The position numbers and the translations under genes were made by a program. Positions 44,067 through 63,699 of a stretch of 64,000 bases of DNA are shown here, in pieces. The stretch is from positions 142,087 to 206,086 of the forward strand of contig JADBKP010000010.1 in the NCBI GenBank assembly GCA_014896315.1. Direction: 5' to 3'. Source of the stretch: Limnochordales bacterium (GTDB taxonomy: Bacteria > Bacillota > Limnochordia > Limnochordales > DUMU01). The notes beneath the pieces are model-generated. The model saw only the letters and a list, made by a program, of their open reading frames with translations, was not told the origin of the DNA and did no database searches. Each line of letters starts with the position of its first letter. Positions within the stretch are counted from its first letter, which is position 1.

Positions 44067-44156
44067 GTCGCGCACAAGTATCGTCAGGGTTGGGTGGCGG
44101 GCACGCGTCCCGCTACCCAACCCCGCTACCGCCAAACTACGCAGCTCCTGACGCCC

Positions 44157-45912: not shown

Positions 45913-46040
45913 TATCACGCATACCATCCAAGCGCAACATATTATGCTTCACGCCAATAACCATGGCTTTGGCACTACCCGTCACCACGCGATCACCGGG
46001 ATATGCATTAAGCGCGCTTCTTCTCCGGACACGCGCTCAA

Positions 46041-46470
46041 ATGGGCATTTCACTGTCAAACTCCCGGAGGAGTGTCACCTCCTTGACCGAACTGCCGCAG
46101 ATTGACGTATACCGCCCCCGTTACCACTTTACTGCTCCCACAGGGTGGATAAATGATCCCAACGGGCTTATCCAGTGGAACGGCAAGTACCATCTCTTCT
46201 ATCAGTATCACCCGTTTGCGCCTCGTTGGGGTCCGATGCACTGGGGGCATGCGGTCAGCGACGACCTTGTTCGCTGGCAACATCTGCCTATCGCATTGCG
46301 GCCGGAACCGGTACGAGTTGAAGGTGATATGAGTGGCATCTTCAGTGGTAGTGCTGTCGACGATAACGGCGTACTAACCCTGATCTATACGTGGTTTCGT
46401 GATCCCAGGGTTCACCCGGGAGTTCCTCCCGAAGTGCAGTGCGTGGCGACCAGTTTGGACGGAGTGAATC
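46041..46470 (+). pseudogene. GH32 (beta-fructofuranosidase/levanase) N-terminal fragment, canonical WINDPNG type
   Basis: YRPRYHFTAPTGWINDPNGLIQWNGKYHLFYQYHPFAPRWGPMHWGHAVSDDLVRWQHLP...FSGSAV. Homology ends near 46470, where the reading frame of recognisable sequence changes. Confidence 0.7.
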
Positions 46471-46473
46471 TCA

Positions 46474-47948
46474 AACCGTCTGGCCCTCTCCAGGCACGGC
46501 AACTGGGGCCTGCACCCGGCCATCGGCGGCCGCTGGCAGGCGGTCTGGGAGCCGGTTCGCCTGCCCAGGGAGCGCTGGGTGCACCTGGCCGTTGCCTTTG
46601 ACGAAGTGGCGGGGGTCTGTCTTTATATGGACGGCAGAGGGGTGGGCGTCTTCCCGGAAGTAAAGGGGGCACTTGCCCCTCCTGACGGACTCGACCTTTA
46701 CATCGGGCGAAACAGTCTGGACATCACTGTTGCCGGTATCTTCCAGACGGGTGTAGTGCATGGGCTTATCGATGAGGTCAAGATCTACAACCGGGCCCTG
46801 TCGGCGGCTGAGGTCGAGAACGCCTTCAACCTGTGCCGTCCGGCCACCGATCCCGATTTCCGGGTACGGCCCGAGCGTTTCGACCGTGATATGCACCGGC
46901 CCCGCTATCATCCAATTCCGCCGGCCAACTGGACCAACGAGCCGCACGGCCCGATCTTCTGGCGGGGACGCTACCACGTCTTCTACCAGGCCAATCCCAA
47001 TGGTCCGTATTGGGGTCAAATCCATTGGGGTCACTCGGTCAGCCGTGACCTGGTTCATTGGGAGTACCTGCCACCGGCTCTTGCGCCCGAGCCCGGGCCA
47101 GACCAGGCCGGTTGTTGGTCGGGGTGCACCGTGACCGACGGGGAAGTGGTTACCGCCATCTACACAGGGGAACAGCTGCCGTACCAGGTACAAAACATCG
47201 CCCAGAGCCGGGATGAATTGCTGCTCAAGTGGGAGAAGCACCCGGCCAATTCGGTGATTCCCGGTCCGCCTGAGGGGTTTGAGATCGTCAGTGGCTTTCG
47301 CGATCCGTGGGCCTGGCGGGAGGGCGACTTCTGGTATCTTATCGTCGGTTGCGGCCTGGCAGGCATTGGCGGGCTAACCTGTTCGGACTTCCCCGCATCT
47401 TCACGTTGCGCCCGGACAGGTTCCTGGGCCAGCAGCCCGTTCCCGAACTGGCCGTGTTGCGTGGGGCGCACCGGCAGTTCAGCAACATAGCTGTGGACGG
47501 CACAAGTGGTGTGGCGGCGTACCAGTCAGACGTGGAAGTGCTGCGGGGGCTGGCCGGCGACAGCCTGGAACTTGTGGCCGAGTTTGATCCCGAGAGCAGG
47601 GAGCAGTTTGGCTTCAAGCTGCGCCGTTCACCGGACGGGCAGGAGGAGACGCTCCTGTACTACGATTCCAGCACCCGGCGGATGTGTGTGGATAAAGACC
47701 GAGCCTCATTAAACCCCTGTGTGGAGCGCGGGGTGCAGGGAGGGCCGTTTGCCCTCCGTCCCGGTGAACCGCTGCAGCTTCATATCTTTATCGATCGCTC
47801 AGTGATCGAGGTTTTCATCAACGGGAGGGCGACCCTCACCACCAGAGTCTATCCGACCCGGCCAGACAGCCTGGGAATCGATCTTTTCTGCCGCGCCGGG
47901 CAGGCGCTGCTGCGGTCGCTGGATGTGTGGGGGATGGAGTCGATTTAG
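46474..47948 (+). pseudogene. LamG (C-terminal half) + GH32 gene with frameshifts and an internal deletion that removes the central catalytic region
   Basis: LamG: ..GNWGLHPAIGGRWQAVWEPVRLPRERWVHLAVAFDEVAGVCLYMDGRGVG..LIDEVKIYNRALSAAEV. GH32: HRPRYHPIPPANWTNEPHGPIFWRGRYHVFYQANPNGPYWGQIHWGH..GFRDPWAW..GLAGIGG, followed by a frame change straight into ..ANLFGLPRIFTLRPDRFLGQQPVPEL and the C-terminal beta-sandwich (..IFIDRSVIEVFINGRATLTTRVYP). Confidence 0.75.
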
Positions 47949-48023
47949 CGGAGTGTCTCAGAGGGGTGAAGGGGTGTCCGTATGGGTGAACACGTAGGAA
48001 GAAGAGAGACGGCGCCGGTCCGA

Positions 48024-49392
48024 ATGTCGTTCTTGCTGGCCGCACTCCTTGCGATGTTCGTCGCAGGGGGACAGGCTGTGGCCGGCACCGGGCCCGACAC
48101 CTCCGGGGAGGGGGGCCAATTCTGATCTCTTAGCCTGGTGGCGGCTGGACGAAAGCGAAGGCCAGGAGGCTCTCGACAGCGTGGCGGGCGTGGCGGATTG
48201 GGTGAGCAACAACTTTGCCGCACCCGAGTGGCGACCCGGGGTGGCGGGGAATGCGCTCCTTTTGGACGGGTATTCGACGTGGATCGAACGTCCGGCCGAC
48301 AGTGAGGCGGCTCTGCGGCTGGGCAACGCCTTCACCATCGAGGCATGGATCGCCCTTCCCTTCTACCCGGCTTCGGCCGCGCCCATCATCAACCAGCTGG
48401 ATGGATTGCCGGGACGGGCGCCAAGCGAGGGCTTTTTCTTCGGGGTACACAACTGGGGTGGCTGGAGCTTCCAGGTATCGGTGGATGGGGCGTGGACCAC
48501 CATCTGGGCGAAAGTCCCGCTGCCGAAGAAAGAGTGGGTGCATGTGGCCGCCACCTTTGACGGAGAGGCAGGCCGGCTCGCCCTATACATGAACAGAGAG
48601 AACGTAGGGGAAAAGAAGGTGACGCCCGGCCGGTTTGTGCCGGCGGAAAAGGCCGGGTTGATGTTGGGACGGCACGTTCAGACACCCTTCATGCATAGGG
48701 TTTTCCCCACGGGCGTGTTCCATGGTCTTCTGGATGAGGTGAAGATCCACCGGCGAGCGCTGAGCGACGACGAGATACGCCGTTCATACTTGGCCTACAA
48801 ACCGTCACAGATAGGAGAGCCCGATCTTCGGGTTCGCTGGGATATGTTTGCTGGTGATCGCCAGCGTCCCCAGTATCACTTCCTGCCGCCGGCCAACTGG
48901 ATGAATGAACCGCACGCTCCGATCAAGTGGCAGGGCCGCTACCACATCTTCTACCAGCACAACCCAAACGGCCCGTACTGGGGCAACATCCACTGGGGTC
49001 ATGCGGTAAGTGAAGACTTGATCCACTGGACGCACCTGCCGGTGGCACTGGCGCCTCAGTCCGGTCCTGACCAGGCCGGCGTCTGGTCGGGACGGGCAGT
49101 GGCGGATGGTGAGCGGGTGCTTATCTTCTACACCGGAGAAGTCTTGCCCCACCAGGTGCAAAATCTGGCTACCAGTACCGACGAGCTGCTGCTTGAGTGG
49201 ACGAGAGATCCGGGCAACCCCATAATCCCCGGGCCACCGCCGGGTTATGAGATTGTCAGCGGTTTTCGTGACCCGTTCGTCTGGAAGCAGGGAGACACCT
49301 TGTACATGATCGTTGGCTCGGGCATCGCGGGACAGGGCGGCACGGCATTCTTATACCGCTCGAAGGATAAGGACCTGAAGGAGTGGGCCTGA
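48024..49392 (+). pseudogene. Signal peptide (frameshifted at a G6 run) + LamG + GH32 N-terminal half, truncated after ..FLYRSKDKDLKEWA
   Basis: ATG 48024 gives MSFLLAALLAMFVAGGQAVAGTGPDTSGEGG, which stops at 48125. ORF 48049..49392 in another frame carries LamG (WVHVAATFDGEAGRLALYMN, LLDEVKIHRRALSDDEI) and GH32 (QRPQYHFLPPANWMNEPHAPIKWQGRYHIFYQHNPNGPYWGNIHWGH, GFRDPFVW). There is no EC motif and no C-terminal sandwich. A 1-nt change in gggggg (48110-48115) would join the frames. Confidence 0.7.
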
Positions 49393-51048: not shown

Positions 51049-53415
51049 CTACAAGCTCGACGCTTTCAGGAACTCGGCCAGCACAACGAGGTAGCGGGCA
51101 TCATCGCGGAGCCTCTCGAGCGCGGTGCGGGCGTCTTCCGTAAGCGTCCCGTTGGCCAGCTCGGACTCGGCTGCTGCCATGGTGCGCTTCACTTCTGGCA
51201 ATAGCTGGACGGGTACTTCATCACCCGGTGCACTCTCCATGGCAGCTGAGGCAGCTGAGGCTTCGTACTGGCGGGCCAGGGCTTCAAGCCGGGCGACGAT
51301 GGGCTCGGGCAGCACGCCCAAGGCCCTGGACCGTCTCCACTTGCGCAAGAAAGCAGCAAGCTGAGCGTTCCATGCACCGGCCGGATCAGCGAGCGGAGAG
51401 ATGGCCCTGTTCCGGAACGGCCCATCCGCCAGGCGCTGGAAGAATTCACCCTGGAGAGTGCTGGCCGCAAAAAACACTATACCGGGGGAGAGCAGTTGAC
51501 GCGCGGAAGCGACCTCGTCCAGCATGCGTTCCGGCGTGAGCAGCCATATCCCGAGGCCAGGCAGGACCTTGGCCGGTTCGGCGGCCGCTTGCGCGTCAGC
51601 GGTGCGCGACCAGAATTCGCCCGGGAACGCGGTGTAGTTCATGATGGCGACGAAGTCAAGCCAGCCTTGCTTCAGCCAGAGAGGCCAGTTTTGGTGGGTT
51701 TCGCGCCGGGCGGCCTGCGGATCGGGGACTACCGCTGCCGAGATAAGCAGGGTGGGACGAACTTGCCGCAACTTTTCCACTGTTTCTTGGAGAAAGCCGG
51801 TCACCAGCTGCTCCCGCCACTCGTCCCAGCGGTCGGCAGCCGGTGAACCGGGTGCGATCGTCCGGGCATCCAGGCCGGTTTCTTCTTCGAATCGTTGCAA
51901 AGTGGCGGGAGAGTAACCGAACGGGGCATGGCTTTCCTCATTGAACCGTATGTAGTCGAGGTGTATGCCGTCGACGTCATACTTGGTGACGATCTCGAGC
52001 AGCAGCTTTTGCACGTAAGTGCGGACCTCGGGAAGGCTGATGTTGAGCCAGGCCGTTCCCCACTCCGTGGGGGAGAAGGGGGAGCCGTCCCGGGAAAGTT
52101 CGGCCCAGTCGGGATGTTGTTGCAGCAACGGACCGAACTCGTGGTAGTAACCGGCGGCAAAGGTCCATACCCAGGGTGCCACCTGGATGCCTCTGGCATG
52201 GGCTTCGGCTGTTATAAAAGCCAGCGGGTCTACATCGCTCCAGCGCCAATACTCCGGATCGTGGGGGGCGAGCTCACTTGGGAAGGCGGCGGCGCTGCGC
52301 CAGACGATCTCGGGAAAGATCAGGTTGACGCCGAGGGCGGCCAGGCGGTCGAGCAGGGAGCGGACCGCATCCGGCCCGGCGAGGAGGGCGGGGCGATCGA
52401 CCCATACCGCCCTGACCTCGGCAACGCGGGACTCGATAGCAAGCGCCGCGGCCCGTTCGGCAAGGGTCCTGGCTGCGGTGGCCTGCCGGGCTGCTTCGTC
52501 ATCGGCCTGTTTGTCGTAGGCGGCCCGGGCCGATGACAGGAGTGCCCGGGCCTGGTCCAGGAGCGTGTCGATGGCCCGGTCGTCCACATCATCCCAGCGG
52601 GCCTCGGCCGCGGCCCGGGCCTCGTCCGCCCGGGCGCAGGCCTCTTCGGCTGCCCGGATCTTCAGCCAGACCGGGCGAAACGCTCCCGCACCGGTCGTCG
52701 CAGCCGATTCGGCCAGCAACTGGATCTCCCGGATCTGCACCCAGTAAACCTGATTGCGGGTCACTCGCAGTCGCAGGTAACGCACGGGGCGAGAAGGGAA
52801 GCGGATCTCCACTTCCGCCTGGCCGGTAAGCTCGCCCACCATCTGCCAGGATCCCGAAGCTCCGCGGACGAGAACCTGACCGGCGTAAACATAGTCGTCC
52901 GGTCGAACGGTGTCTTGCGAGTCGTTGGGGCGCGCACTTTCTGGGAAGGTTCCCATGAGGAAACGGACGCCGTTCAACCGGTATTCGGCTCCCAGATCCA
53001 GCTCCAACCAGTCACCGGCCCGCACTTCGCGGCCCGACCAGTAAAAGGTGGAGAGATCCCCGTCTATAGCCCGGCCAAGTTCCATACCCTGGGCTTCGCC
53101 CCAGTTGCTGGTGGTGATCGTGAGGTCGGGAATGATCACCCATTCGGCGGCAGGCGTAGTAGCCGCCGGTGCGTTCTCGGCCGCAGTCGCAGCGAGCAGG
53201 GGTGCGGCCCGGAGCTGCATGAGCGTGGCAAGCACCCCGATCAGGCCGGCCAGAAGTCGTGCATTCCCCCGCTGACGGATCGGCGCAATCGGCGCAAAGC
53301 GAGAAAGCGGTGAAGACGGCGGCCGCTCGCCGGGGCGTCCGGCTGCCAAGCCGCGTTCAACAACTCCACGCAGTGATTCGGACGAAGCGGGTGCGATCGT
53401 CTCCTGGTTTGTCAT
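51049..53415 (-). CDS. Single-pass membrane protein: short cytoplasmic tail, TM, F5/8-type-C (CBM32-like) domain, helical linker, GHL10 (DUF187/YngK-like) TIM barrel, helical C-terminal extension
   Basis: 788 aa with the ATG 6 nt after GGAGGAGGAG. TM segment LLAGLIGVLATLMQL. CBM32-like: AIDGDLSTFYWSGREVRAGDWLELDLG..VRYLRLRVT..VYWVQIREIQL. GHL10: EVRAVWVDRP..DPLAFITAEAHARGIQVAPWVW..TAWLN..DVDGIHLDYIRFNEE. Confidence 0.85.
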   Translation of the reverse strand: MTNQETIAPASSESLRGVVERGLAAGRPGERPPSSPLSRFAPIAPIRQRGNARLLAGLIGVLATLMQLRAAPLLAATAAENAPAATTPAAEWVIIPDLTITTSNWGEAQGMELGRAIDGDLSTFYWSGREVRAGDWLELDLGAEYRLNGVRFLMGTFPESARPNDSQDTVRPDDYVYAGQVLVRGASGSWQMVGELTGQAEVEIRFPSRPVRYLRLRVTRNQVYWVQIREIQLLAESAATTGAGAFRPVWLKIRAAEEACARADEARAAAEARWDDVDDRAIDTLLDQARALLSSARAAYDKQADDEAARQATAARTLAERAAALAIESRVAEVRAVWVDRPALLAGPDAVRSLLDRLAALGVNLIFPEIVWRSAAAFPSELAPHDPEYWRWSDVDPLAFITAEAHARGIQVAPWVWTFAAGYYHEFGPLLQQHPDWAELSRDGSPFSPTEWGTAWLNISLPEVRTYVQKLLLEIVTKYDVDGIHLDYIRFNEESHAPFGYSPATLQRFEEETGLDARTIAPGSPAADRWDEWREQLVTGFLQETVEKLRQVRPTLLISAAVVPDPQAARRETHQNWPLWLKQGWLDFVAIMNYTAFPGEFWSRTADAQAAAEPAKVLPGLGIWLLTPERMLDEVASARQLLSPGIVFFAASTLQGEFFQRLADGPFRNRAISPLADPAGAWNAQLAAFLRKWRRSRALGVLPEPIVARLEALARQYEASAASAAMESAPGDEVPVQLLPEVKRTMAAAESELANGTLTEDARTALERLRDDARYLVVLAEFLKASSL

Positions 53416-53418
53416 CGG

Positions 53419-55716
53419 CTACTCCTCCTCCGATGTTTTGGACCGGACGTCGGTCTGGTTGCCGCTGTGGGTGACCTTTGACCGAAGGGTGTTGCGGAGC
53501 GGCTTACCGGGATCGAGCGGTTTGGCACGCCTGCGGAATGGCCCCTCGGCCAGCACGATCTGCGCCTTCTCCGCCAGGGTGCTGGCGGAGTACAGGCAGA
53601 TCCCGGTGGCCACCCGACTTTGACGGGCCACGGTGATCTGGTCGACCAGCTCTGCGGGGGTCAGCAGCCAGCTGCCGATTCCGTGCAAAAGGCCGGTCCG
53701 GACCGGGCCTGACGCTGTCCTGGCGACAAACTCCCCCTCTCCGGCCAGGACGCGCTGGCGAAAGACCTCCAGGGAGGGGGTGTAGTTGGTTGTTACCAGG
53801 CAGTCGACAAGAGGCCGTCTGCCTTTGCCGCCGACCCATTCCGGCCAGGCCTGATGCATCTCCCCCAAGGCGAACTGAGGGTCGGGCCAGACGGTGGCCG
53901 AGAGCTCTTTGCCGTGCCGGTGAACCACCCGCGCGATGGTGCGCAGAAGGGCGGTGACGTTGCGAGCCCGCCACCGGTTGAAATCGAGCGCCCCGACGCC
54001 GTCTTTCTGCTTTTCCCGATTTTCCCGATTACCCCGAGCTTGAGCCCGGGCGAACGCCGCCAGGCTCGCAGGCGCATAGCCGAAAGGAGCCAGGCTTTCT
54101 TCGTGGTATCGCAGGTAGTCCAGGTGCAAGCCGGCGAGCGGGTAGCTCGCAAGGAGTTCCTCTGCCAGTTCGGCAAAGAATCGACGGACGGCCGGGAGGG
54201 CCGGATTCAGCCAGGCGGTGCCTTGCGGAGTTGGGGCGATGGTATCACCCGAAATAGAACGGTCGGCCCAGTCGGGATGCCGGCGAAGCAGCGGACCTTC
54301 GTCAAAGTCGTAACCAGCACAGAGAACCCATAGCCAGGGCACAACCACTATGCCGCGCCGGCCCCCTTCTTGCAGCAGGAAGGCGAGCGGGTCTTCGTCG
54401 TTCCAAACCTGGCGCATGCTCTCGTCCGCCGGGGCGATCCGGCTGGGATAAGCGGCCGCTCCGCGGCTGAATACCTCAGCAAAGGCCAGGTTGATACCCA
54501 GGTCGTGGAACCGATCGAGCTGCCGCCGCAGCTCCGACGGCCCGCCGAGCAATGCCGGGCGGTCTATCCAGATCGCCCGTGTCTCTTGTTCCCGGCTTTC
54601 TACGGTCAGGGCAGCCGCCCGGTCCGCCAGGCGGGCCGCGCGAGCCGCCGTGCTCTTTACTCCCTGCTCGCCGGCGGGGGCGCGCCGGTACGACTCCCGC
54701 GCCTTCTCCAGGAGAGCTTTGGCCAGGTCCAGCTCCGCACGGGCAGGTTGGATTTCAGACTGATCGGTGGCGGCCGCCCGTGCCAGGCAGGCTTCGGCGC
54801 GGGTCACCGCCTGTTCCGCGCGGCGGAGAAAGAGCCAGGCCGGCTGGTGCGGGCTGGCTCCGGGAGGACATAGCAGGCGTATTTCCCGGATCTGCGCCCA
54901 GTAGACCTGGTCGGCGGTGACCAGGATGCGTAGATAGCGCGCCGGCCGTGCGGGAAAAGAGAGTGAGAGTTCCGGCAGCCCGTTTAACCGGCCGACAGTC
55001 TGCCAGTCTTGCTGGTCCGCGGAGAGTTGAATTACCCCTGTGTACAGGTAATCTGCCGGGCGCACGTACTCGCCAGTGAAACTACCCATGAAAAGATGAA
55101 TTCCACAGACGGGGTACTGCTCGCCGAGATCGATGAGAAGATAGTCGCCGGTCCTGGGGGGCCTTTCGGTCCAGTAGAACGTATCCAGGTCGCCATCCAG
55201 AGCTGCCTCCGGCCGCGTCCCGAGCGCTGCGCCCAGGTTGCTTGTCTCAAGACGTGCCGCGGGCACGATCAGCCATTCCGGGCTGGCAGAAGAAAGAGGC
55301 GCAGAGCCTGGCAAAGGCAGCTGAGGAGGTGAACAGGCAAGCAGATGGTTTCCCCCCGCTGCTGCCAGGCGGGCAGCAAGCCTCCACTGCGCCAGGACTT
55401 GATCGCGCGTCAAATGGGCGAGGCCGGTAAGAGCCAGGCGCACGCGTTCGGGCACTCGCCCGGCTGCCAGAACCAGCTCGTCAGGAGCGGGATGCTGGAA
55501 GTAGTCGGCCAGCTGGCGCACAACTGCTTCGGACGGGGTGGTCACCCCGCGTTCTAGCTGGCTGAGGTAGGCAAAGTGCAGTCCCACTTCCGCGGAGAGG
55601 CGGCGCAGGCTGAGGCCGCGGGCGAGCCGGCTCTGACGCAACCAGCGGGCAAACCTCAACTCGGGTGCCTCTGCTTCATGATCTAAGAGAAGCATATCCT
55701 GCTGGTGACTTTTCAT
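53419..55716 (-). CDS. XRE-family HTH fused to a CBM32-like domain and a GHL10 (DUF187) glycosidase-like TIM barrel; no TM segment seen
   Basis: 765 aa. HTH: FARWLRQSRLARGLSLRRLSAEVGLHFAYLSQLERGVTTPSEAVVRQLADYF. CBM32-like: ALDGDLDTFYWTERPPRTGDYLLIDLG..ARYLRILVT..VYWAQIREIRL. GHL10: ETRAIWIDRP..DPLAFLLQEGGRRGIVVVPWLWV..TAWLNP..LAGLHLDYLRYHEE. The next gene starts 3 nt after its stop. Confidence 0.85.
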   Translation of the reverse strand: MKSHQQDMLLLDHEAEAPELRFARWLRQSRLARGLSLRRLSAEVGLHFAYLSQLERGVTTPSEAVVRQLADYFQHPAPDELVLAAGRVPERVRLALTGLAHLTRDQVLAQWRLAARLAAAGGNHLLACSPPQLPLPGSAPLSSASPEWLIVPAARLETSNLGAALGTRPEAALDGDLDTFYWTERPPRTGDYLLIDLGEQYPVCGIHLFMGSFTGEYVRPADYLYTGVIQLSADQQDWQTVGRLNGLPELSLSFPARPARYLRILVTADQVYWAQIREIRLLCPPGASPHQPAWLFLRRAEQAVTRAEACLARAAATDQSEIQPARAELDLAKALLEKARESYRRAPAGEQGVKSTAARAARLADRAAALTVESREQETRAIWIDRPALLGGPSELRRQLDRFHDLGINLAFAEVFSRGAAAYPSRIAPADESMRQVWNDEDPLAFLLQEGGRRGIVVVPWLWVLCAGYDFDEGPLLRRHPDWADRSISGDTIAPTPQGTAWLNPALPAVRRFFAELAEELLASYPLAGLHLDYLRYHEESLAPFGYAPASLAAFARAQARGNRENREKQKDGVGALDFNRWRARNVTALLRTIARVVHRHGKELSATVWPDPQFALGEMHQAWPEWVGGKGRRPLVDCLVTTNYTPSLEVFRQRVLAGEGEFVARTASGPVRTGLLHGIGSWLLTPAELVDQITVARQSRVATGICLYSASTLAEKAQIVLAEGPFRRRAKPLDPGKPLRNTLRSKVTHSGNQTDVRSKTSEEE

Positions 55717-55816
55717 CGGTTATCGGTTCACCTGCTTGTTAATGGGTGGGCACCGTTGGCTCGTGGTACCACCCGTTTGTGAACCAGTATTCCGCAAGCA
55801 TGGCAGGATTCCCTTC

Positions 55817-55841
55817 TGTAGTGTAGAAATACTACACTACA
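55817..55841. promoter_or_regulatory. Perfect 10-5-10 inverted repeat; candidate operator in the divergent promoter region between the HTH-GHL10 gene and the SBP/GHL10 operon
   Basis: tgtagtgtag aaata ctacactaca. The right arm overlaps a tacaat -10-like hexamer (55837-55842), about 38 nt before the SBP GTG at 55880. Confidence 0.6.
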
Positions 55842-55879
55842 ATCACCAACCGCCCCTGCGGAACAAGGAGGGAGTATCC

Positions 55880-57199
55880 GTGAGTCGACGTCAAGGTGGG
55901 CGTGGGCGCTGGTATAGCGGCAATTTGGGGATCATGATGGCAGTCCTTGTCGTGTTGTTCCTGGTCGGTTTCAATGTCAGGACCGGTCCGGTATGGGCGG
56001 CCCCGGTGGAGCTAACTTTCTACCACCAATGGGTGGGCAAGGATGCCGAGCTGTTGCAGGCGATAGTGGACGAATTCAATCGCAGCCAGAAAGAGATCCG
56101 CGTCAAGTTCATTCCGAACGCGAGTCTGGAGAAGCAGCTGGTGGCCATTGCCGGAGGCTCGGGGCTTGATATCGGTTACGTTGCCTGGAGCAACGTGCCG
56201 GGACTGGTGGAGAAGAAGGTAGCGTTGCCGCTCGACAGTTTCCTGGCGGATCCCAAGAGCGCTCTGAAACCGGGGGACTTCATCCCGGCTGCCCTGGAAT
56301 TGGGTCGGATTGAAGGGGTCCAGTACGGGCTTCCCATGACAGTGGATATCAAGATGATGTTCTACAACACCGATATCCTCGACGAAAAGGGTATCCCGAT
56401 TCCGGAGACCGCCGGCCAGTTCCAGGAAATGCAGCGCCGCGTGTTTGAGAAGGGACCCGACGGGAGGATTCGCCGCCTGGGATTCCTGCCGGAGTACCCG
56501 TGGTTGTCAGTGGGCCTGTGGGAGCTGGTCTTCGGCGGGCGATTCTACGATCCCGTCACCCGCCAGGTTACCCCCGACGATCCTCGCAATATCCTCGGCA
56601 TAAAGTTTATGCTCTTTCCGTATCAGACGTTCGGGTTTGGCGCGGTACGAGCGTTCCAGCAATCGTGGGGTGGGTACTGGACCAACAATGACCCATTTGT
56701 GACGGAAAAACTCGTTTCCACCGCGGACGGGGAATGGCTCCCGTTGATGCTCTCGCAGCTTGCCCCCAGGATGTCCTACCGCATAGCTCCGTTGCCTTAT
56801 CCGGATGATCGCCCCGATCTGAAGTACAGCTCCTTGCTCGAACCAGGGATGCTCTTCGTCGCCGCCAACACCCGCCATCCCCGCGAGGTGTGGAAGTTCC
56901 TGGAGTATCTTGAGTCCGCCGAACAGACGGTGCGCATCTGCGCAGGCAAAGGTTCGCTTCCCCACTTGCGAACTGTTTTGACCGATTCCCGTTTGTGGAC
57001 GGGAACGGCGCCGGGTATGAAGGAGTTTGTATGGTATTTGCACAGTCCCAACATGCGTACCTTCCCCAATCTGAGTATCACTTCACAGTATATGAGTGCG
57101 ATCTGGACCGAACTGCAGAAAGTATTTAGCGGTGAACAGACCCCGGAGGCAGCCATGCGGAGGGTAAAAGAACAGATCCAACCGTTGTTGCGGCGGTAA
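55880..57199 (+). CDS. ABC transporter extracellular solute-binding protein (CUT1 family)
   Basis: The ORF track starts at 55736. GTG 55880 lies 6 nt after AAGGAGGGAG and gives VSRRQGGRGRWYSGNLGIMMAVLVVLFLVGF.., an N-terminal anchor, followed by a typical SBP body. Confidence 0.85.
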   Translation: MSRRQGGRGRWYSGNLGIMMAVLVVLFLVGFNVRTGPVWAAPVELTFYHQWVGKDAELLQAIVDEFNRSQKEIRVKFIPNASLEKQLVAIAGGSGLDIGYVAWSNVPGLVEKKVALPLDSFLADPKSALKPGDFIPAALELGRIEGVQYGLPMTVDIKMMFYNTDILDEKGIPIPETAGQFQEMQRRVFEKGPDGRIRRLGFLPEYPWLSVGLWELVFGGRFYDPVTRQVTPDDPRNILGIKFMLFPYQTFGFGAVRAFQQSWGGYWTNNDPFVTEKLVSTADGEWLPLMLSQLAPRMSYRIAPLPYPDDRPDLKYSSLLEPGMLFVAANTRHPREVWKFLEYLESAEQTVRICAGKGSLPHLRTVLTDSRLWTGTAPGMKEFVWYLHSPNMRTFPNLSITSQYMSAIWTELQKVFSGEQTPEAAMRRVKEQIQPLLRR

Positions 57200-57253
57200 T
57201 CCGAGCTGTAAAGGACGAGATATGACATCGACTGAAGAGAAGGAGTGCAGACC

Positions 57254-58342
57254 ATGGCGGCAGATACGAACATATTTGCTCACATAGGTGTCTGGCTCAA
57301 CCGTGAAGACCTGCTTTCCCGCAAGCCAGGACAGCTTGAATACATTTTCGACCAGATGGCCGCCATGGGTGTGACGCACGTCTATCCTGAACTCTATTTC
57401 CGGGGCGGCGCCGCTTATCCGAGCGGAGTCGCCCCGGAGCACGGCGAGTTTCGTTCCCGCCGCATATTGCTGGATAAGAATCAGCGACCCGAGGACATAG
57501 TGTCAGAGCTGCTGCGCCTTGCTCGCGAGCGTAATATTCAGGTTCATCCGTGGGTGTGGGTCTTCTGCGCGGGGTATTGGCATACCTACGGGCCTATACT
57601 GGAATGCCATCCCGAATGGGCGGAGCTTGACCAGGACCGGCATCCTTTTTCAAACTGGCGGTACGGTACGGCCTGGCTCTGCCCGGTTTTGCCGGCAGTG
57701 CGCGAGTACTTGCTGGCCGTGCTGGCGGAACTGGTAACGCGCTGGCCCGTAGACGGGGTCCATCTGGACTACATCCGCTACAACGAGGAGGAGGCTGGCT
57801 CGTTTGGTTTTCACCCGGCTTCTCTGGCACAATTCCGGGAAGATACCGGAATGAGCGAACCGGGTCATGGCGGACGGGATGCCGACGACCAGGAGCGACG
57901 GGCCGCCTGGACGGCCTGGCGGGCGGGTAACGTGACCCGCTTTCTGACCGAGGCGGTTCGACGTTTACGCGCCCTTCGCCCCGGTATCAGGATATCGGCG
58001 GCGGTAGTGCCCGATCCGGATCTTGCGTATCGCAACGCCTGCCAGGAGTGGGCCAGGTGGGCGGAAGAAGGGCTGCTGGACCATGTACTGCCCATGGCTT
58101 ACCGCACGAACCTGGCGGAGTTGCGCGCTGTCCTCACGGTACTGCGGGAACGGCTGGCGGGCCGTGGTAGGGGCAGTGCGGGTGCGGCGCTCTATCCGGG
58201 TCTGGCCGTTTGGGTGAGTCCGGAGGAAATCGTCCGCCAGGTAGAGATCGTGCGGGAGCTGGGTTTCGAGGGAGTGACTCTCTTCTCGACCCTCAACCTT
58301 ACACCCGCCCACTACACTGCGCTGCGGGCTGTGTTGCGCTAG
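57254..58342 (+). CDS. GHL10 (DUF187/YngK-like) family protein; bare TIM barrel with no signal peptide
   Basis: The ORF track starts at GTG 57245; ATG 57254 lies 8 nt after AAGGAG. Motifs: HIGVWLNRED..MGVTHVYPELYFRGGAAYPS..NIQVHPWVWVFCAGY..TAWLCP..PVDGVHLDYIRYNEEE. Confidence 0.85.
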   Translation: MAADTNIFAHIGVWLNREDLLSRKPGQLEYIFDQMAAMGVTHVYPELYFRGGAAYPSGVAPEHGEFRSRRILLDKNQRPEDIVSELLRLARERNIQVHPWVWVFCAGYWHTYGPILECHPEWAELDQDRHPFSNWRYGTAWLCPVLPAVREYLLAVLAELVTRWPVDGVHLDYIRYNEEEAGSFGFHPASLAQFREDTGMSEPGHGGRDADDQERRAAWTAWRAGNVTRFLTEAVRRLRALRPGIRISAAVVPDPDLAYRNACQEWARWAEEGLLDHVLPMAYRTNLAELRAVLTVLRERLAGRGRGSAGAALYPGLAVWVSPEEIVRQVEIVRELGFEGVTLFSTLNLTPAHYTALRAVLR

Positions 58343-58503: not shown

Positions 58504-58518
58504 CAGTAGGTGATATCT

Positions 58519-59664
58519 GTGCCCACTATCCTGGATGTAGCCCGTCTGGCTCAGGTTTCCAAGAGCACTGCTTCCCGGGTGTTGAATGGGTTTTCCGGCA
58601 CACCGCCGGAGGTCAGAGAGCGGGTCTTTGCCGCGGCCCGGGCCCTTGGCTACGAACCCGATGCCTCCGCCCGCGGCCTTGTCCGGCGCAAAACCGAGAC
58701 CATCGGTGTTGTTGTGGCAAAGGTTGGTGATCCTTTCTTCGCTGCTTTCCTCCGGGGGGCAGGTGATGCCGCGGCCGAAGCCGGCTACTCCCTCACCATC
58801 ACCAGCGGCGAGTGGGCCGAGGAAGAAGTAGCCTATCAGCGGCTGATTCGCCAGCGCCGTGTCGACGGTCTGCTCTTTATCAGCGGGCCGGTGCTTTCAC
58901 CCAAGCTCAGGCAGCAGCTTTCTCGCTCGGACCTTCCCGTTGTCATGGTTGACCGTGACGAGGAAGATTGGCAGTTGCCCATAGATAGGGTGAACGCCGA
59001 TAACCGGGCAGCAATTGCTCGCGCCGTAGCCTGGCTCAAGTCCCGGGGCCACACCCGCATCGCCTTCGTCGGTGGCCCGAGCAACGTCCCGGCCGCCCAG
59101 CGGCGGCTGGAAGGCTACCGTCAGGGGCTGAGGGATTGCCATCTTCCCTACGACGCTTCTTTAGAGTTGCCGGGAGATTTCAGCCCGCAGGCCGGGATCG
59201 CTGCCCTCCCCCGGCTCCTTGAGGTCCGCCCGCGGCCGACGGCTGTCATTGCGGCCAACGACCTGACGGCCATAGGAATCTTGCGGGCGGCGGCAGAGGC
59301 AGGGGTGAGGATTCCCGACGACCTGTCGGTCCTGGGGGTTGACGACATCGATGCTGCTGGTTGGGTAAACCCACCCCTGACGACTTTGCACCAACCGTGC
59401 TACGAGATGGGCAGGCGGGGCGTAGAGCTGCTCCTTTCCCGGATCGAGGAGAAGGCGTTGCAGACTCGGGCAAACTCCCGTACCGGCAACCCTCCCACCC
59501 CCGAGCCGGGGACACCAACGGAAGTTCTTCATGAGGTGCTTTCCATGCAGCTCGTGGTACGTGAGAGCGTGGCGGAGATTCGGGGGACTCACCGCCGTGA
59601 GGACGATCTCCCATCCGGAAGCTGTGCAGATGCTGCAGGAAGGATGGGAGGTGAGAGAAGGTAG
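58519..59664 (+). CDS. LacI-family transcriptional regulator
   Basis: The ORF track starts at GTG 58510. GTG 58519 gives MPTILDVARLAQVSKSTASRVLNG, the HTH_LacI motif, followed by a sugar-binding core and a roughly 50-aa non-conserved tail. Confidence 0.9.
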   Translation: MPTILDVARLAQVSKSTASRVLNGFSGTPPEVRERVFAAARALGYEPDASARGLVRRKTETIGVVVAKVGDPFFAAFLRGAGDAAAEAGYSLTITSGEWAEEEVAYQRLIRQRRVDGLLFISGPVLSPKLRQQLSRSDLPVVMVDRDEEDWQLPIDRVNADNRAAIARAVAWLKSRGHTRIAFVGGPSNVPAAQRRLEGYRQGLRDCHLPYDASLELPGDFSPQAGIAALPRLLEVRPRPTAVIAANDLTAIGILRAAAEAGVRIPDDLSVLGVDDIDAAGWVNPPLTTLHQPCYEMGRRGVELLLSRIEEKALQTRANSRTGNPPTPEPGTPTEVLHEVLSMQLVVRESVAEIRGTHRREDDLPSGSCADAAGRMGGERR

Positions 59665-59828
59665 CGTTAGAGCCCAGACGCTACCAGGCGCAACCAGTGA
59701 CATTCTGATGCAACCGGGGTAACCAGCGGCAACCAGAGGTATAATGAGCGGCTCAGACTCTGATGGATGTGGGATGTCAGATCAACTTGACGGTTTGTGG
59801 GGGCCTAAGATGGGAAGGAGTGTGAACC

Positions 59829-61130
59829 ATGAGAACGAGGTTAAGCTTGGTCTTGACGCTAGCCGCCGCATTGTTTGTTGGGCAGATCCTGGGGGCATCA
59901 CCACTGATTGCAGCCAGTCAGCAAGGGACCGCTTCAATCACAAAGATCACGTTTAGCATGATGATGAATAGTGTGGAAGAAGTTGCGAACTACCGAGCAT
60001 TGATCGACCAGTTCAATGCAGCTAACAAAGATGTCAAGGTTGAGTTTCTTGAGATCAGCGGCGACTACTACCAGAAAATAATCTCTATGATTGCTACTGG
60101 GACTGCTCCCGATCTCTTCTGGTATGGCGGAACCAACTCAGCACAATTGATTCGCGATGGTGTCCTTGCTGACCTCGTGCCTTTCATCGAAAATGATCCT
60201 GACTTCAACCTTGCCGATTTCTTCCCCAGTGCTGTTAACCCATTCCGCTGGCAAGGCGGTCTCTACGGAATACCTCGAGATGTGTCACCGCTCGTGATGT
60301 ATTACAATGTCGACTCTTTTGCTAACGCCGGGCTTCAGTCGCCCAATGATCATCACGACCGCAAAGCATGGAATTGGGACAACTTCCTCAGTGTCGCCAA
60401 GAAGCTGAGTGCCCCCAATGCCCCCACACCGCGTTATGGCATGAGCACAGACTGGTGGTGGGGTCTGTGGTTCCCGTGGATTCTCACAAATGGCGGGGAG
60501 ATCTTCTCGCCGGACTATAAGGAAGCTCGCTTCGATTCGCTCAAGGCACGCGAAGGTTTGAAGTTCTTCGTGGATCTGATTCATGTTCACAAGGTTGTGC
60601 CCAGCCCTGATCAAGCCAACGCCCTGGGCGGGCACTGGGAGCTCTTTGTTCGCGGCCAGGCGGCCATGTATCCCACCGGGCGGTGGGCCGTGCCGGGGCT
60701 GCGCCAGACCAAAGGTCTGAACTTCGACGCTGTGGTCATGCCGTACCGGGTCCGGCAGGGCAGTCCGCTCTTTACCGGTATCTATGCCATTTCTGCCGCG
60801 TCCACCAAGAAACAGGCTGCCTGGAGGCTCCTCAAGTGGATGGTTAGCCCGGAGGCGCAGCTGAGGCTGGCGGCACTGGGTCAGGTGTTGCCCTCCCGCT
60901 TGTCGGCGGCCGTTTCCAAGGAGTTTATCAACTCTGTGCCGCCAAAGCACAACATGGTCTTCGTCGAGGCGGCGCAACACGGCTATCTTGAACCGGTCTT
61001 CCCCGAGTTTGGCAAAGTCATGGACGTCACCTGGGGTCCGTTCTGGGAGATGTTCAACGGCAGGATGACGGTGGACAACGCCCTTGACTCGATCATGCCG
61101 CAAGTCAGGCAGATCATGGGCATGAAGTGA
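59829..61130 (+). CDS. ABC transporter extracellular solute-binding protein (CUT1 family)
   Basis: 433 aa with the ATG 8 nt after GGAAGGAG. Signal peptide MRTRLSLVLTLAAALFVGQILGASPLIAA, then a typical SBP body (GTAPDLFWYG, GQAAMYPTGRW). Confidence 0.9.
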   Translation: MRTRLSLVLTLAAALFVGQILGASPLIAASQQGTASITKITFSMMMNSVEEVANYRALIDQFNAANKDVKVEFLEISGDYYQKIISMIATGTAPDLFWYGGTNSAQLIRDGVLADLVPFIENDPDFNLADFFPSAVNPFRWQGGLYGIPRDVSPLVMYYNVDSFANAGLQSPNDHHDRKAWNWDNFLSVAKKLSAPNAPTPRYGMSTDWWWGLWFPWILTNGGEIFSPDYKEARFDSLKAREGLKFFVDLIHVHKVVPSPDQANALGGHWELFVRGQAAMYPTGRWAVPGLRQTKGLNFDAVVMPYRVRQGSPLFTGIYAISAASTKKQAAWRLLKWMVSPEAQLRLAALGQVLPSRLSAAVSKEFINSVPPKHNMVFVEAAQHGYLEPVFPEFGKVMDVTWGPFWEMFNGRMTVDNALDSIMPQVRQIMGMK

Positions 61131-61151
61131 AGCCGGATCGGGGTGAGCTGT

Positions 61152-61189
61152 GGGCGGGTCGGGCTCGTGGAGGAATGTCCGACCCGCCC
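61152..61189 (+). terminator. Strong intercistronic stem-loop between the SBP and GH35 genes (no U-tract)
   Basis: gggcgggtcgg (61152-61162) pairs perfectly with ccgacccgccc (61179-61189). The stem is 11 bp and the loop 16 nt. Confidence 0.45.
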
Positions 61190-61212
61190 TGACCGCCCGA
61201 CGGAGGGGACAG

Positions 61213-63699
61213 GTGGGGTCGAAGTTGAAGGCAGCAGCCGGGGCGATTTTGAGTTTGGGGCTGAGTTTGTTGACGGTCATTGCTATCCAGGGCACGGTTT
61301 ACGCAAATCAGAACGGTGAGCATGGCCAGGAAAGGGGCAAGGCGGAAACAGTGCAGGAGCCATCATTGCAGTCACAAGACGGGCACTTCCTCTTAAACGG
61401 AAAGCCGGTCTTCCTCCTGACGGGCGAGTTCCCTTACTATCGCATTCCGGCGGCTGAATGGGCGGACCGCCTTCACAAGGTGAAGGCTGCCGGCGTGCAG
61501 ATCATTACGTTCTACATCCCGTGGAACTGGCACATGCCCTCGGCGGGCGAGGCCGATTTCACCGGAGAGACCGATCCCAGCCGCAACCTAGTAGAGCTTC
61601 TGCGGCTGATCCAGGCCCGGGGGATGTACGCGATCGCCAAACCAGGGCCTTTTATCTGTGCCGAGGTGAAGCACGGAGGGATCCCCGACTGGTTCACCAG
61701 GGCGCATCCGGAAGCAATTACGCTCAGCGCCTCCGGCCGGCCGGTTGGCTTCCGGCAGGATGGCAAACCACTTCCCGCCTACCTGCATCCTGCTTACGTC
61801 CGGGCTGTGAAGGACTGGTTTGAGAGGGTGGCGGCGGTTCTGCGGGAGTGGCAGGCGCCATCCGGCCCGCTGATAGCGGTGCAGGTGGAGAACGAAATCC
61901 CCTACAGCACCAGCGAACTGGCCGATCCTTACTCGTGGGGCTACAATCCGGCAGAAATCGATCTTTACCGTGAGTGGCTGAAGCAACGCTATCAGTCTCT
62001 GGAAAGGTACAACGTGGCCCACCAGACGGAGTACAGGGCATGGGCCGAGGTGCAGCCCCCGGGGCGCGAGAGTCTTGCGGCCAAAGCCGACTCCGCGGCC
62101 GGGCAACGCCTGGCCCGCTGGTTGCCTTTCCGGGACTGGGTGCAGTTTAAGAGCTGGTACGGGGCGGAAGTGTTGCGGGTCTACGGCGAGCTGCTGCGGG
62201 AAGCAGGGGTGACCGTCCCTCTCTATCAGAACTTCCTGATGCTGGAGGACGAAGCGCCGACGGATTATGCGGCGATGGGTGCCAGCATGTGGGTGGGGGT
62301 CAACTACTGGCTTCCCAGACACCCGCTCTCCTCGTATGCCGACTTCGTGCGGGGGCTTTTCCGTGCGCAGCTCCTGGCCGCCCGCGCCCCTGGCTCGCCG
62401 CTTTATGCGCCCGAAGTGAACTGGGGTTGGGGACACGAGGGCGAGTTCGACTTTTTGACCCGCTACATCACGACGGTGCTGAACGGGGTGAACATCTACC
62501 CGGTCGTCAACGGTTCATACAATCCGCAGGTGGCCGGTGAACCCTACAGTAATAGCCCGCTGCCGTATCCCGGTTCTGCCCCCATCGGTGCAGAAGGCGA
62601 GACGGACTCAGCTGCATACGAGTCTCTCCGCCGGCTGGCGTTTTTCCTGAACCGTGCAGGAGCGGACCTGGTGCAGACCCGGGGGCCGGCTGAAGTAGCC
62701 ATCGCTTACTATGCCCCGTACAACGAAGAGCGAGTCTACAAGGAGTGGGGCGGGCTGCCAGAAGAGGCGGTGGTCCGGCTGGTCGGGCGAGAGGTCGAGG
62801 GCCTGCCGGCGGGGCAGCCGGCGGTGGCCGACGCCTGGACCTCGACTCAGCTGCTCATGGGGGCACTCTTGCGGACCGGGGTTGAGTTTGAGCTTGTGGA
62901 CCTTTCCCGGACGTCGGCGGCGGAGCTTGCCCGCTACAAGGCGGTGGTCTTCTGGTCCTGGGACTACCTGGGCCGGCGTGAGCAAGAGGCGCTGGCTGGC
63001 TATGTGAAGGAGGGCGGCCGGCTGCTCCTGGTCGGCCAGATTCCCACTTTCGATGAGGAGCTGCGCCCGACGGCCATTCTCGGCGACGTGATCTCGCGTG
63101 CTGCCAAGGTTACGGTTGTTGCTCCGGCCGAGCTGGGGTTGAGCCCGGGCTCGGGTGCCGGCTCCTGGTCGACCAACGCAGGCAACAGCCCGGGCCTGTC
63201 TGACAGGTTTGGTCTCTGGTTGCAGGAGGCCGGTATCGTTCCTGCGGTGCGGGTGACCGATCTCGGTTCGGGGGAGCCACTGGCCTCCGGCAAGCTGGGT
63301 GAGGAAGTGAGTCTCTTCCGGCGGACGGGCAAGGGCGGAACGTTTCTCTTCCTGGTAAACCGGGCTCGCCGGCCACAGCGTCTGGCGGTCGACTTCCCCG
63401 ACGAGCAAGGACGGCGCTGGGAGGCGCGGCTGACTCTCCCGCCCGGGCGGGTCTCCATACTGCATCTGAAGAACGGTGAGTGGCGGGGAGCGGCCCTGGC
63501 AGGATTTGGCGGTATCGATGTGACCTTGACGCCCCTGGAGCCGACGCCTGCCCAGGACGGGGCCGAACCTGTCCCTGCTCGAGAAGCCAGGCCCCGGCGT
63601 TTCACCGCCGAGACCAACTTCGCCGTTTGGGTGCGGGACGACGAAGGCCGGGTGGAGATCCTTACGCAAGACGACGTACCCGGGCACTGGGAGCAGTAG
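61213..63699 (+). CDS. Secreted glycoside hydrolase family 35 beta-galactosidase-like enzyme with large C-terminal domains
   Basis: The ORF track starts at GTG 61150, which would place the hairpin inside the coding sequence; I prefer GTG 61213, which follows GGAGGGG. Signal peptide ..AILSLGLSLLTVIAIQGTVYA. GH35 N-terminal signature: FLLNGKPVFLLTGEFPYYRIP..W.DRLHKVKAAGVQIITFYIPWNWH..FTG..DL..LLRLIQARGMYAIAKPGPFICAEVKHGGIPDWF, and VQVENE. Confidence 0.85.
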   Translation: MGSKLKAAAGAILSLGLSLLTVIAIQGTVYANQNGEHGQERGKAETVQEPSLQSQDGHFLLNGKPVFLLTGEFPYYRIPAAEWADRLHKVKAAGVQIITFYIPWNWHMPSAGEADFTGETDPSRNLVELLRLIQARGMYAIAKPGPFICAEVKHGGIPDWFTRAHPEAITLSASGRPVGFRQDGKPLPAYLHPAYVRAVKDWFERVAAVLREWQAPSGPLIAVQVENEIPYSTSELADPYSWGYNPAEIDLYREWLKQRYQSLERYNVAHQTEYRAWAEVQPPGRESLAAKADSAAGQRLARWLPFRDWVQFKSWYGAEVLRVYGELLREAGVTVPLYQNFLMLEDEAPTDYAAMGASMWVGVNYWLPRHPLSSYADFVRGLFRAQLLAARAPGSPLYAPEVNWGWGHEGEFDFLTRYITTVLNGVNIYPVVNGSYNPQVAGEPYSNSPLPYPGSAPIGAEGETDSAAYESLRRLAFFLNRAGADLVQTRGPAEVAIAYYAPYNEERVYKEWGGLPEEAVVRLVGREVEGLPAGQPAVADAWTSTQLLMGALLRTGVEFELVDLSRTSAAELARYKAVVFWSWDYLGRREQEALAGYVKEGGRLLLVGQIPTFDEELRPTAILGDVISRAAKVTVVAPAELGLSPGSGAGSWSTNAGNSPGLSDRFGLWLQEAGIVPAVRVTDLGSGEPLASGKLGEEVSLFRRTGKGGTFLFLVNRARRPQRLAVDFPDEQGRRWEARLTLPPGRVSILHLKNGEWRGAALAGFGGIDVTLTPLEPTPAQDGAEPVPAREARPRRFTAETNFAVWVRDDEGRVEILTQDDVPGHWEQ

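Follow-up and report, generated by a model that had tools for sequence, protein, structure and literature searches.

Background

Some bacterial regulators join the fold of a pathway enzyme to a DNA-binding domain. Known cases are the ROK repressors NagC, Mlc and XylR and the trigger enzymes PutA, NadR and BirA, some of which are catalytic; kinase, dehydrogenase or ligase folds are used in these proteins. In this study we analyzed a gene which joins a helix-turn-helix (HTH) domain of the XRE type to a carbohydrate-binding module (CBM) of family CBM32 and a glycosidase-like barrel of family GHL10. The gene is located in a stretch of 64,000 nucleotides from a metagenome-assembled genome (MAG) of the Limnochordales, here referred to as the window. 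Loci of relatives are labelled L001 etc. and proteins of relatives P0005 etc.

In RsgI6 of Clostridium thermocellum a GH10 module, paralogous to a regulated xylanase, is the polysaccharide sensor of an anti-sigma-I factor; catalysis by this module is very low and binding is retained (PMC4711584). RsgI is a membrane protein with an extracytoplasmic sensor, and its signal reaches a separate sigma factor by proteolysis (PMC10328401, PMC12203970). XRE-cupin proteins such as PsdR carry an N-terminal XRE HTH and a C-terminal sensing domain in one soluble protein (PMC10965056). XRE regulators often control their own expression, as dimers bound to a palindrome close to their gene (PMC12565409). Within GHL10, Cwp19 is a lytic transglycosylase (PMC6016235) with a solved structure (PMC5765458), DigH is a hydrolase of denuded peptidoglycan glycans (PMC12288456) and DogH is less securely characterised (PMC9967864).

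Domain composition and integrity of the fusion gene

We propose that the fusion gene encodes a cytoplasmic one-component regulator, derived from an exported CBM32-GHL10 protein, which controls the genes of a solute-binding protein (SBP) and a GHL10 protein as well as its own operon. We give this proposal a probability of roughly 0.6. The gene and its domains are:

53419..55716, minus strand: fusion gene of 765 aa, XRE HTH, linker, CBM32, three-helix bundle and GHL10 barrel, predicted cytoplasmic
55465..55665, minus strand: XRE/Cro-C1-type HTH, residues 18-84, five helices (Pfam, PDB sequence matches, AF2)
55279..55464, minus strand: linker, residues 85-146, two short helices followed by a low-confidence Pro-rich stretch (AF2)
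54862..55278, minus strand: CBM32 (F5/8 type C) beta-sandwich, residues 147-285 (Pfam, Foldseek)
54583..54861, minus strand: Ala/Arg-rich three-helix bundle, residues 286-378 (AF2)
53527..54582, minus strand: GHL10 (beta/alpha)8 barrel, residues 379-730 (Pfam, AF2, Foldseek)

In Pfam all three domains scored above the curated cut-offs. These were: HTH_3 (PF01381) at residues 26-74 with 38.7 bits (cut-off 23), F5_F8_type_C/CBM32 (PF00754) at residues 168-279 with 38.7 bits (cut-off 28.2) and GHL10 (PF02638) at residues 380-680 with 86.1 bits (cut-off 27.9). Additionally, HTH_31 matched with 36.7 bits (cut-off 27), and the PDB sequence matches of the HTH were XRE regulators. The AlphaFold2 (AF2) model had a mean predicted local distance difference test (pLDDT) score of 81.8 and contained the five-helix bundle with the helix 2-turn-helix 3 arrangement of XRE HTH domains (helices 18-32, 37-44, 48-56, 63-72 and 78-84; pLDDT 72-89 over residues 21-80). 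The linker, with pLDDT values of 38-53, contained, at 104-121, a short amphipathic helix that includes Arg. It was followed by the beta-sandwich (147-283), the bundle helices (293-316, 323-345 and 350-370) and the TIM barrel (379-730), for which pLDDT was mostly above 90. The top Foldseek match of the model was the GHL10 domain of Cwp19 (5oq3, E 1e-15, TMt 0.72), and the sandwich matched CBM32 structures (TMt 0.63-0.71), among them 2w1q, 4lpl and 7d2a (TMt 0.67-0.71). A Cro/C1-type HTH followed by a CBM32-like domain and a GHL10 barrel, as read from the letters in the initial annotation, is thus borne out by profiles and by structure prediction.

The same annotation described an Ala/Arg-rich helical linker in front of the barrel. 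Its helices are found again in the three-helix bundle of the model; however, it is more than a linker. Many other GHL10 representatives aligned from about position 305-320 of an HMMER profile of the fusion proteins, and the bundle therefore belongs to the GHL10 subfamily.

The fusion open reading frame (ORF) was uninterrupted in NCBI, Logan and JGI assemblies from several lineages. A stop or frameshift separating the HTH from the remainder was looked for and was found in none of the assemblies examined; the fusion is no assembly artefact. Residues 34-58 of the HTH, including the recognition helix, were invariant across 5 orthologs.

Selection was measured as the ratio of non-synonymous to synonymous substitutions (dN/dS, Nei-Gojobori) against three orthologs. 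The whole fusion gene gave 0.14-0.24, the HTH 0.15-0.26, the linker 0.09-0.34, the CBM32 0.06-0.10 and the GHL10 barrel 0.135-0.22. Every part of the gene is under purifying selection, and the CBM32 is its most constrained domain. The corresponding values for the exported paralog described below were 0.13-0.25 (CBM32) and 0.09-0.135 (GHL10). Compared with this presumed enzyme, the CBM32 of the regulator is more constrained and its barrel slightly less. Carbohydrate binding by the CBM32 of the fusion protein is predicted indirectly from this strong constraint.

Cellular location and relation to the exported paralog

The gene directly downstream of the fusion gene is:

51049..53415, minus strand: exported paralog of 788 aa, N-tail with signal-anchor or signal peptide, CBM32, bundle, GHL10 and helical C-tail

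Hydropathy was calculated as the Kyte-Doolittle mean over 19 residues. No such segment of the fusion protein exceeded 1.05 and none between HTH and CBM32 exceeded 0.89. Within the first 260 residues of 5 fusion orthologs the maximum was 1.21, located in CBM32 strands or in a Ser/Ala linker, and none of the five carried a transmembrane (TM) helix between the HTH and an outer domain as RodZ- or anti-sigma-like proteins do. The missing hydrophobic segment after the HTH, noted before for the window, is therefore a property of all five orthologs, and the fusion protein is not membrane-bound. Input and DNA-binding output domains are united in one soluble polypeptide, as in one-component regulators.

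The exported paralog had been described as repeating the CBM32-linker-GHL10 architecture three nucleotides downstream. The gap is indeed 3 nt (53416-53418), and the two proteins shared 42% identity and were colinear over 603 residues (BLASTP). In Pfam the paralog matched F5_F8_type_C at residues 104-231 and GHL10 at residues 333-596 (117 bits). It begins with an N-tail of 55 residues and has one hydrophobic segment at residues 58-76 (1.67), followed by AxA-like motifs. In its orthologs the corresponding segment scored 1.9-2.6 and preceded Ala-rich motifs resembling cleavage sites. The tail and the single hydrophobic helix of the initial annotation are confirmed, whereas the protein, called a membrane paralog there, may instead be secreted after cleavage. 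An N-terminal hydrophobic segment was seen in 102 of 147 related representatives in a crude hydropathy screen, and the closest non-HTH relatives inspected carried mostly classical signal peptides or anchors.

The BLASTP match between both proteins starts exactly at E147 of the fusion protein, the first residue after its linker, and at E91 of the paralog, the first residue after its signal-anchor. Fusion protein and paralog therefore differ by a swap of the N-terminal module. Judged by this alignment, the linker of the fusion protein stands in the place of the signal-anchor of the paralog.

A conserved palindrome between divergent genes

The fusion gene and the SBP gene diverge from a common intergenic region, which contains the following elements:

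55880..57199, plus strand: membrane-anchored sugar-type SBP (CUT1/SBP_bac_1), first gene of the divergent arm (Pfam)
55817..55841, no strand: candidate operator TGTAGTGTAG-AAATA-CTACACTACA, perfect 10-5-10 inverted repeat
55801..55816, no strand: conserved pyrimidine-rich block GGCAGGATTCCCTTC adjoining the palindrome, partly invariant in 8 loci

The palindrome at 55817-55841, already pointed out in the initial annotation, precedes the SBP start by 38 nt and that of the fusion gene by 100 nt. It was unique in the window, and no match occurred in 100 shuffles even with 3 mismatches allowed. Both arms, TGTAGTGTAG and CTACACTACA, were identical in 8 further loci from about 5 further lineages. An alignment of eight intergenic regions revealed a variable 5-nt spacer (AAATA, AAAGA, AAGTC and AAATC) and diverged flanks; synonymous divergence between these genomes was 0.5-3.8. 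Every fusion locus had the pattern, and it was absent from the 33 other loci fetched. An exact scan of 185,579 species genomes gave 3 matches, all of them between an HTH-GHL10 gene and an SBP gene. The HTH is thus conserved together with an invariant palindrome. Invariant arms with a variable spacer form a pattern which is operator-like rather than that of an RNA stem. From this we infer that the palindrome is a candidate operator for the fusion protein, and the co-conservation strongly suggests binding of the one to the other.

Each arm consists of two direct TGTAG pentamers (TGTAG TGTAG N5 CTACA CTACA). The four pentamers could mean binding by a dimer of dimers. The LacI regulator encoded at 58510-59664 was considered as the binder of the palindrome and rejected, since L001, L002 and L042 have the palindrome but lack the LacI gene.

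The pyrimidine-rich block could be a promoter element or possibly an anti-Shine-Dalgarno sequence. Its conserved stretch GGATTCCCTTCT can pair with the Shine-Dalgarno region of the SBP gene if both are transcribed, and no covariation was found. By eye, the palindrome and the ribosome-binding site (RBS) are separated by a small GC stem which keeps its shape with differing sequence: CCGC..GCGG in the window, CCCGC..GCGGG in L002/L042 and apparently a longer form in L001. A terminator scan gave a count at chance level, and the operon boundaries and the sign of regulation used here are putative.

Composition, distribution and origin of the module

The fourth gene of the module is:

57245..58342, plus strand: signal-less "bare" GHL10 barrel of 365 aa downstream of the SBP gene (Pfam, 125 bits; alternative start ATG 57254)

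The SBP gene followed by the bare GHL10 gene forms one arm of the module, and the fusion gene followed by the exported paralog forms the divergent one. This four-gene module was found in L001 (a Limnochordaceae MAG), L002/L003, L004 and L042, with partial views in L007, L008 and L009. It thus extends to at least five other lineages and down to 48% identity, and the flanking genes differ between the loci. The adjacency of fusion gene and paralog is conserved in L001, L002, L004 and L042, and the pairing of SBP and GHL10 is kept in all related loci.

The SBP gene starts with GTG at 55880 and is preceded by the RBS GGAGGGAG. Its product has an N-terminal hydrophobic segment (2.32). The best PDB relative is 4r9f "MBP1" (E 4e-24), which identifies it only as a generic oligosaccharide binder. 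With dN/dS values of 0.04-0.06 the SBP is under strong constraint. The bare GHL10 protein contains only the GHL10 domain, with the barrel beginning at about residue 13. An upstream start codon is impossible in its ORF, and the protein therefore has no signal peptide. NCBIfam assigned a family neither to the SBP nor to any of the three GHL10 proteins. For the substrate, the neighbourhoods of P0031, P0048 and P0057 were uninformative as well.

In a neighbour-joining tree of the GHL10 barrel (100 bootstraps) the HTH copies, the exported copies and the bare copies each formed a monophyletic group (support 100, 99 and 100, respectively). The HTH-bearing and the exported CBM32-bearing proteins grouped together (87/100), and the bare GHL10 formed a separate lineage. 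This topology is in line with a single recruitment that preceded the separation of these Limnochordales lineages. The third copy of the initial annotation is indeed a bare barrel without signal peptide in the divergent SBP operon; it belongs, however, to a more distant lineage and is no recent copy.

The protein of the window is identical to an NCBI entry of a Limnochordales MAG which is named only "family 10 glycosylhydrolase". A word-index search gave four more proteins with HTH, CBM32 and GHL10 (48-84% identity); when restricted to the HTH and linker it gave one weak stand-alone XRE protein and nothing informative. An HMMER profile of the five fusion proteins matched 7,123 of 1.84 billion cluster representatives. 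Only one of these aligned from profile position 1, and the others started at the CBM32 (position 150 or later) or the bundle (position 300 or later). The relatives inspected were the best 150 of the 7,123 matches, so that fusions with more distant GHL10 domains are possible. An HTH profile run against 177 fetched proteins detected no HTH in the other 172, and among the 63 best representatives Pfam found an HTH in the query only. Accessory domains in these 63 were CBM9 (9 proteins), F5/8-C (5), CBM30 and CBM4_9. A metagenome scan with the HTH alignment alone added one ortholog (L009, 771 aa); the other 32 loci encoded XRE proteins of 91-335 aa, and no second fusion type was present. Literature searches found no XRE-CBM32 or HTH-GHL10 regulator. 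The statement of the initial annotation that no characterised HTH-GHL10 fusion is known agrees with the literature found and with the matches inspected. As far as these searches extend, the fusion occurs in a single Limnochordales clade only.

Several loci showed further peculiarities. One of the 63 closest GHL10 representatives has an SBP_bac_1 domain in the same polypeptide, which echoes the SBP-GHL10 gene pair; it is not close to the SBP of the window. The contig of L008 (JBLNBY010000065.1, 3218 bp) is labelled as part of a Bacteroidota MAG; it carries the palindrome of the Limnochordales module together with its fusion gene (82% identity) and SBP gene (90% identity), and was almost certainly assigned to the wrong bin. 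P0005 (L001 10001-12670, 889 aa), the most distant of the fusion orthologs, has a helical C-tail of about 100 residues, homologous to that of the exported paralog and lost in the other orthologs, and an insertion of about 35 residues in the linker between HTH and CBM32. The bare GHL10 gene of L002 (7490-8477) and L003 (2081-3068) carries a frame change, with residues 173-228 missing. In L004 (8688-9867) the 3' end of the SBP gene and the 5' end of the GHL10 gene are missing.

Residues of the GHL10 barrel

The initial annotation called the GHL10 fold poorly characterised. This does not hold for the family, as Cwp19 and DigH act on peptidoglycan glycans; the subfamily found here, however, differs at the proposed catalytic Asp. 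For Cwp19 the residues Asp196 and Arg132 were proposed for the active site (PMC5765458). At the end of strand beta-4 Cwp19 and DigH carry FDDY, compared with HLDYIRY in all three proteins of the module and in 97% of 149 related representatives. In the fusion protein Y534 aligns with Asp196 and C466 with Arg132, and the same is true for both paralogs. Both proposed Cwp19 residues are thus absent from the fusion barrel. Since their loss is common to the subfamily, it does not indicate decay of the fusion copy, and the activities of Cwp19 and DigH are not simply transferable.

The subfamily-invariant residues D442, G529, D533, R536, S606, Q622 and W624 were all retained in the fusion protein. Of 35 columns conserved at 85% or more the fusion barrel keeps 26 and departs at 9, compared with 5 departures in each paralog. 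Two of the exchanges, M643T and F709Y, are shared by all orthologs; they map to those ends of strands beta-6 and beta-8 which are predicted to face the ligand. Taken together, the pocket looks kept but retuned.

The difference between DG[IV]HLDY and AGLHLDY noted earlier is real in the alignment of the barrels. D528A was considered as the loss of a catalytic acid and was discarded, as the residue is located at the N-terminal (bottom) end of strand beta-4 in the AF2 model. The active site of Cwp19 lies on the C-terminal face of the barrel, away from this position (PMC5765458).

Proposed mechanism and alternative explanations

According to our proposal an exported CBM32-GHL10 protein would have lost its signal-anchor and gained an XRE-type HTH. 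The resulting protein, probably a dimer or higher oligomer, would bind TGTAGTGTAG-N5-CTACACTACA between the divergent transcription units, and from there it would control both the arm of SBP and cytoplasmic GHL10 and its own operon including the exported paralog. The exported CBM32-GHL10 protein would act on an extracellular glycan and, in the simplest case, release an oligosaccharide. This product would be captured by the anchored SBP, imported through permeases encoded elsewhere and processed in the cytoplasm by the signal-less GHL10. The CBM32/GHL10 part of the regulator would serve as the receptor for an oligosaccharide of the kind its paralogs bind or cut, and binding would alter the affinity for DNA. 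A repressor released by its inducer is the most likely logic: with 38 nt between the end of the palindrome and the SBP start codon, a protein bound there would cover the promoter or lie immediately behind it, which suggests repression relieved by sugar. The signal is presumed to be a glycan. By analogy, the fusion protein would occupy the regulator slot of a "regulator + SBP + signal-less glycosidase" unit, as LacI does in several units elsewhere in the window. The reading as a one-component regulator, already put forward in the initial annotation, is supported by the soluble HTH, the invariant palindrome and a paralog with an export signal or anchor.

Several observations weigh against this proposal. 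The conserved module has no ATP-binding cassette (ABC) permease, and the import step has to rely on transport genes elsewhere. A cytoplasmic CBM32 is unusual. A consensus scan found no sigma-70-like promoter, and any position assigned to the palindrome relative to the promoters is therefore putative. Measured between the centres of the half-sites, the full arms lie 15 bp apart, and a simple dimer would match this spacing only if its contacts were limited to the inner 6-mers. Finally, the SBP/bare-GHL10 arm is damaged in two lineages in which fusion gene, paralog and palindrome are intact, and it is intact in L001, L007 and L042. A damaged arm next to an intact palindrome means that the essential target may be the operon of the regulator itself.

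The fusion protein might also be a trigger enzyme, which we regard as possible but doubtful. Here the GHL10 domain would still be catalytic and would degrade the imported oligosaccharide in addition to regulating, with DNA binding coupled to turnover and a self-limiting response. The whole exo-acting cassette, joined to an XRE HTH and still turning over its ligand, might then read the flux of imported oligosaccharide and destroy its own inducer. If true, this would be a self-contained circuit for cutting, import, sensing and digestion, built largely from one enzyme family, in which the trigger enzyme controls the exported paralog, the cytoplasmic GHL10 and the binding protein. The retention of all subfamily-invariant residues and a dN/dS of the barrel only slightly above that of the exported paralog are in line with catalysis. 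However, the fusion barrel has more departures from the consensus than either paralog, M643T and F709Y included, among the three barrels it shows the greatest divergence (34-42% identity), and a separate cytoplasmic GHL10 is already present in the module. It is unlikely that the module serves the glycans of the cell's own wall, for example in turnover or recycling of peptidoglycan, with a regulator sensing a wall fragment. This idea draws on Cwp19 as the best structural match and on the activities of Cwp19 as lytic transglycosylase and of DigH on denuded glycans (PMC6016235, PMC12288456). Against it stand HLDYIRY in place of FDDY, the change from Asp196 to Tyr and the lack of Arg132 (PMC5765458). 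Furthermore, the relatives carry CBM9, CBM32, CBM30 and CBM4_9, with no LysM, SPOR or CWB2 among the families matched, the partner is an SBP of the CUT1 oligosaccharide type, and the window is a sugar-utilisation neighbourhood.

For the palindrome itself, a role as RNA hairpin in the 5' untranslated region of the SBP gene was considered, which would mask the Shine-Dalgarno sequence with the pyrimidine block, the HTH acting elsewhere or not at all. The 81-nt region does fold at -32.2 kcal/mol (z = -5.6), and the block GGAUUCCCUUCU pairs with AGGAGGGA..AUCC of the SBP RBS. We nevertheless consider this explanation improbable, as none of 20 predicted pairs showed a compensatory change (covariation term +0.5), the arms are invariant and the loop is variable as in an operator, the outer anti-Shine-Dalgarno pairs are broken in several loci and no Rfam family matched. 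RNA and operator roles of the palindrome are not mutually exclusive. A membrane protein of the RodZ or anti-sigma type, whose HTH would face the cytoplasm and whose CBM32-GHL10 part would lie outside the cell, would be in keeping with the export of the paralog and of most relatives and with the usually extracellular location of CBM32 domains. Given the low hydropathy of the first 260 residues in 5 orthologs and the short, amphipathic, Arg-containing nature of helix 104-121, it is hardly credible. The chance that two genes were joined by a sequencing or assembly error is negligible, even though the window comes from a MAG and nearby GH32 genes look frameshifted: the same continuous ORF occurs in independent NCBI, Logan and JGI assemblies of several lineages, and the linker itself is under purifying selection.

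Surroundings of the module

The region 374-63699 of the window encodes at least 8 SBPs of the CUT1 type, four LacI regulators and one ROK/MarR-type regulator. Glycosidases in the window were GH4, GH123-like, GH63/MGH1-like, GH3 and GH35/GlmA-like. No ABC permease was present among the ORFs of at least 200 aa scanned with Pfam. The genome seems to be arranged in units of regulator, SBP and glycosidase which share permeases encoded elsewhere.

The module is immediately followed (58510-63699) by genes for a LacI regulator, another SBP and a GH35 protein, an arrangement also present in L004 and missing from L001, L002 and L042. The GH35 protein resembles the exo-beta-D-glucosaminidase GlmA (NCBIfam NF041127, well below the cut-off; Pfam GLMA_2nd). 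This unit was examined as a part of the module that might give a clue to the substrate, and was dismissed because it occurs only in the window and in L004. At 42734-49392, four consecutive ORFs contain pieces of GH32 fructanases (GH32N fragments, GH32C and Laminin_G_3) with frame changes. They adjoin a DDE transposase (44239-45312, minus strand) and a short SBP fragment (42734-43591). This region is either a decaying fructan-utilisation locus or the product of MAG assembly errors. Two ORFs among the SBP and LacI genes, 29394-31592 (732 aa) and 1778-3214 (478 aa), had no Pfam match at E <= 1e-5 and may encode undescribed carbohydrate-active proteins.

Comparison with known systems

We take the fusion protein to be a probable one-component regulator with an unprecedented input module. 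That its gene is real and maintained is well supported by our analysis, and the distribution of the gene is narrow. If the proposed regulation is true, a CBM combined with a glycosidase-type barrel would be a new intracellular input module for one-component regulators. The protein would also be a natural example of an exported enzyme turned into a sensor by exchange of its signal sequence for a DNA-binding domain, and its ancestor-like paralog is still next door, so that both can be compared directly. Operator, regulator and targets would be united in one compact conserved module, a possible glycan-responsive genetic switch once the ligand is known. Additionally, the module might offer a way into the substrate of the large GHL10 subfamily of the HLDYIRY type, which has thousands of members and lacks the catalytic residues proposed for Cwp19. 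The restriction to one small uncultured clade limits the general importance.

With the ROK repressors and trigger enzymes the fusion protein has the principle in common, without being homologous to them. The GHL10 proteins Cwp19 (C. difficile), DigH/YddW (E. coli) and DogH (D. radiodurans) belong to the same Pfam family and have the same TIM-barrel fold, and shared pocket residues include W383, W461, D533, Y645 and G679 (PMC5765458). In contrast to the fusion protein, they are exported enzymes without HTH, and the accessory parts of the characterised members are CWB2 repeats or a lipoprotein signal instead of CBM32 (PMC6016235). No regulator with a glycoside-hydrolase barrel plus a CBM was described in the literature found by our searches.

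In architecture the XRE-cupins are closest, with the same layout of HTH and sensor. Their cupin of about 100 residues contrasts with the three-part enzyme cassette of about 620 residues in the fusion protein; the closest relatives of its HTH in metagenomes are proteins of 91-335 aa without an enzyme cassette. In function RsgI6 is closest, since there as well a glycoside-hydrolase module paralogous to the controlled enzymes is reused for carbohydrate recognition. However, GH10 and CBM32 with GHL10 are unlike in fold and family, and the fusion protein has no TM segment, includes a DNA-binding domain of its own and would act as an intracellular sensor.

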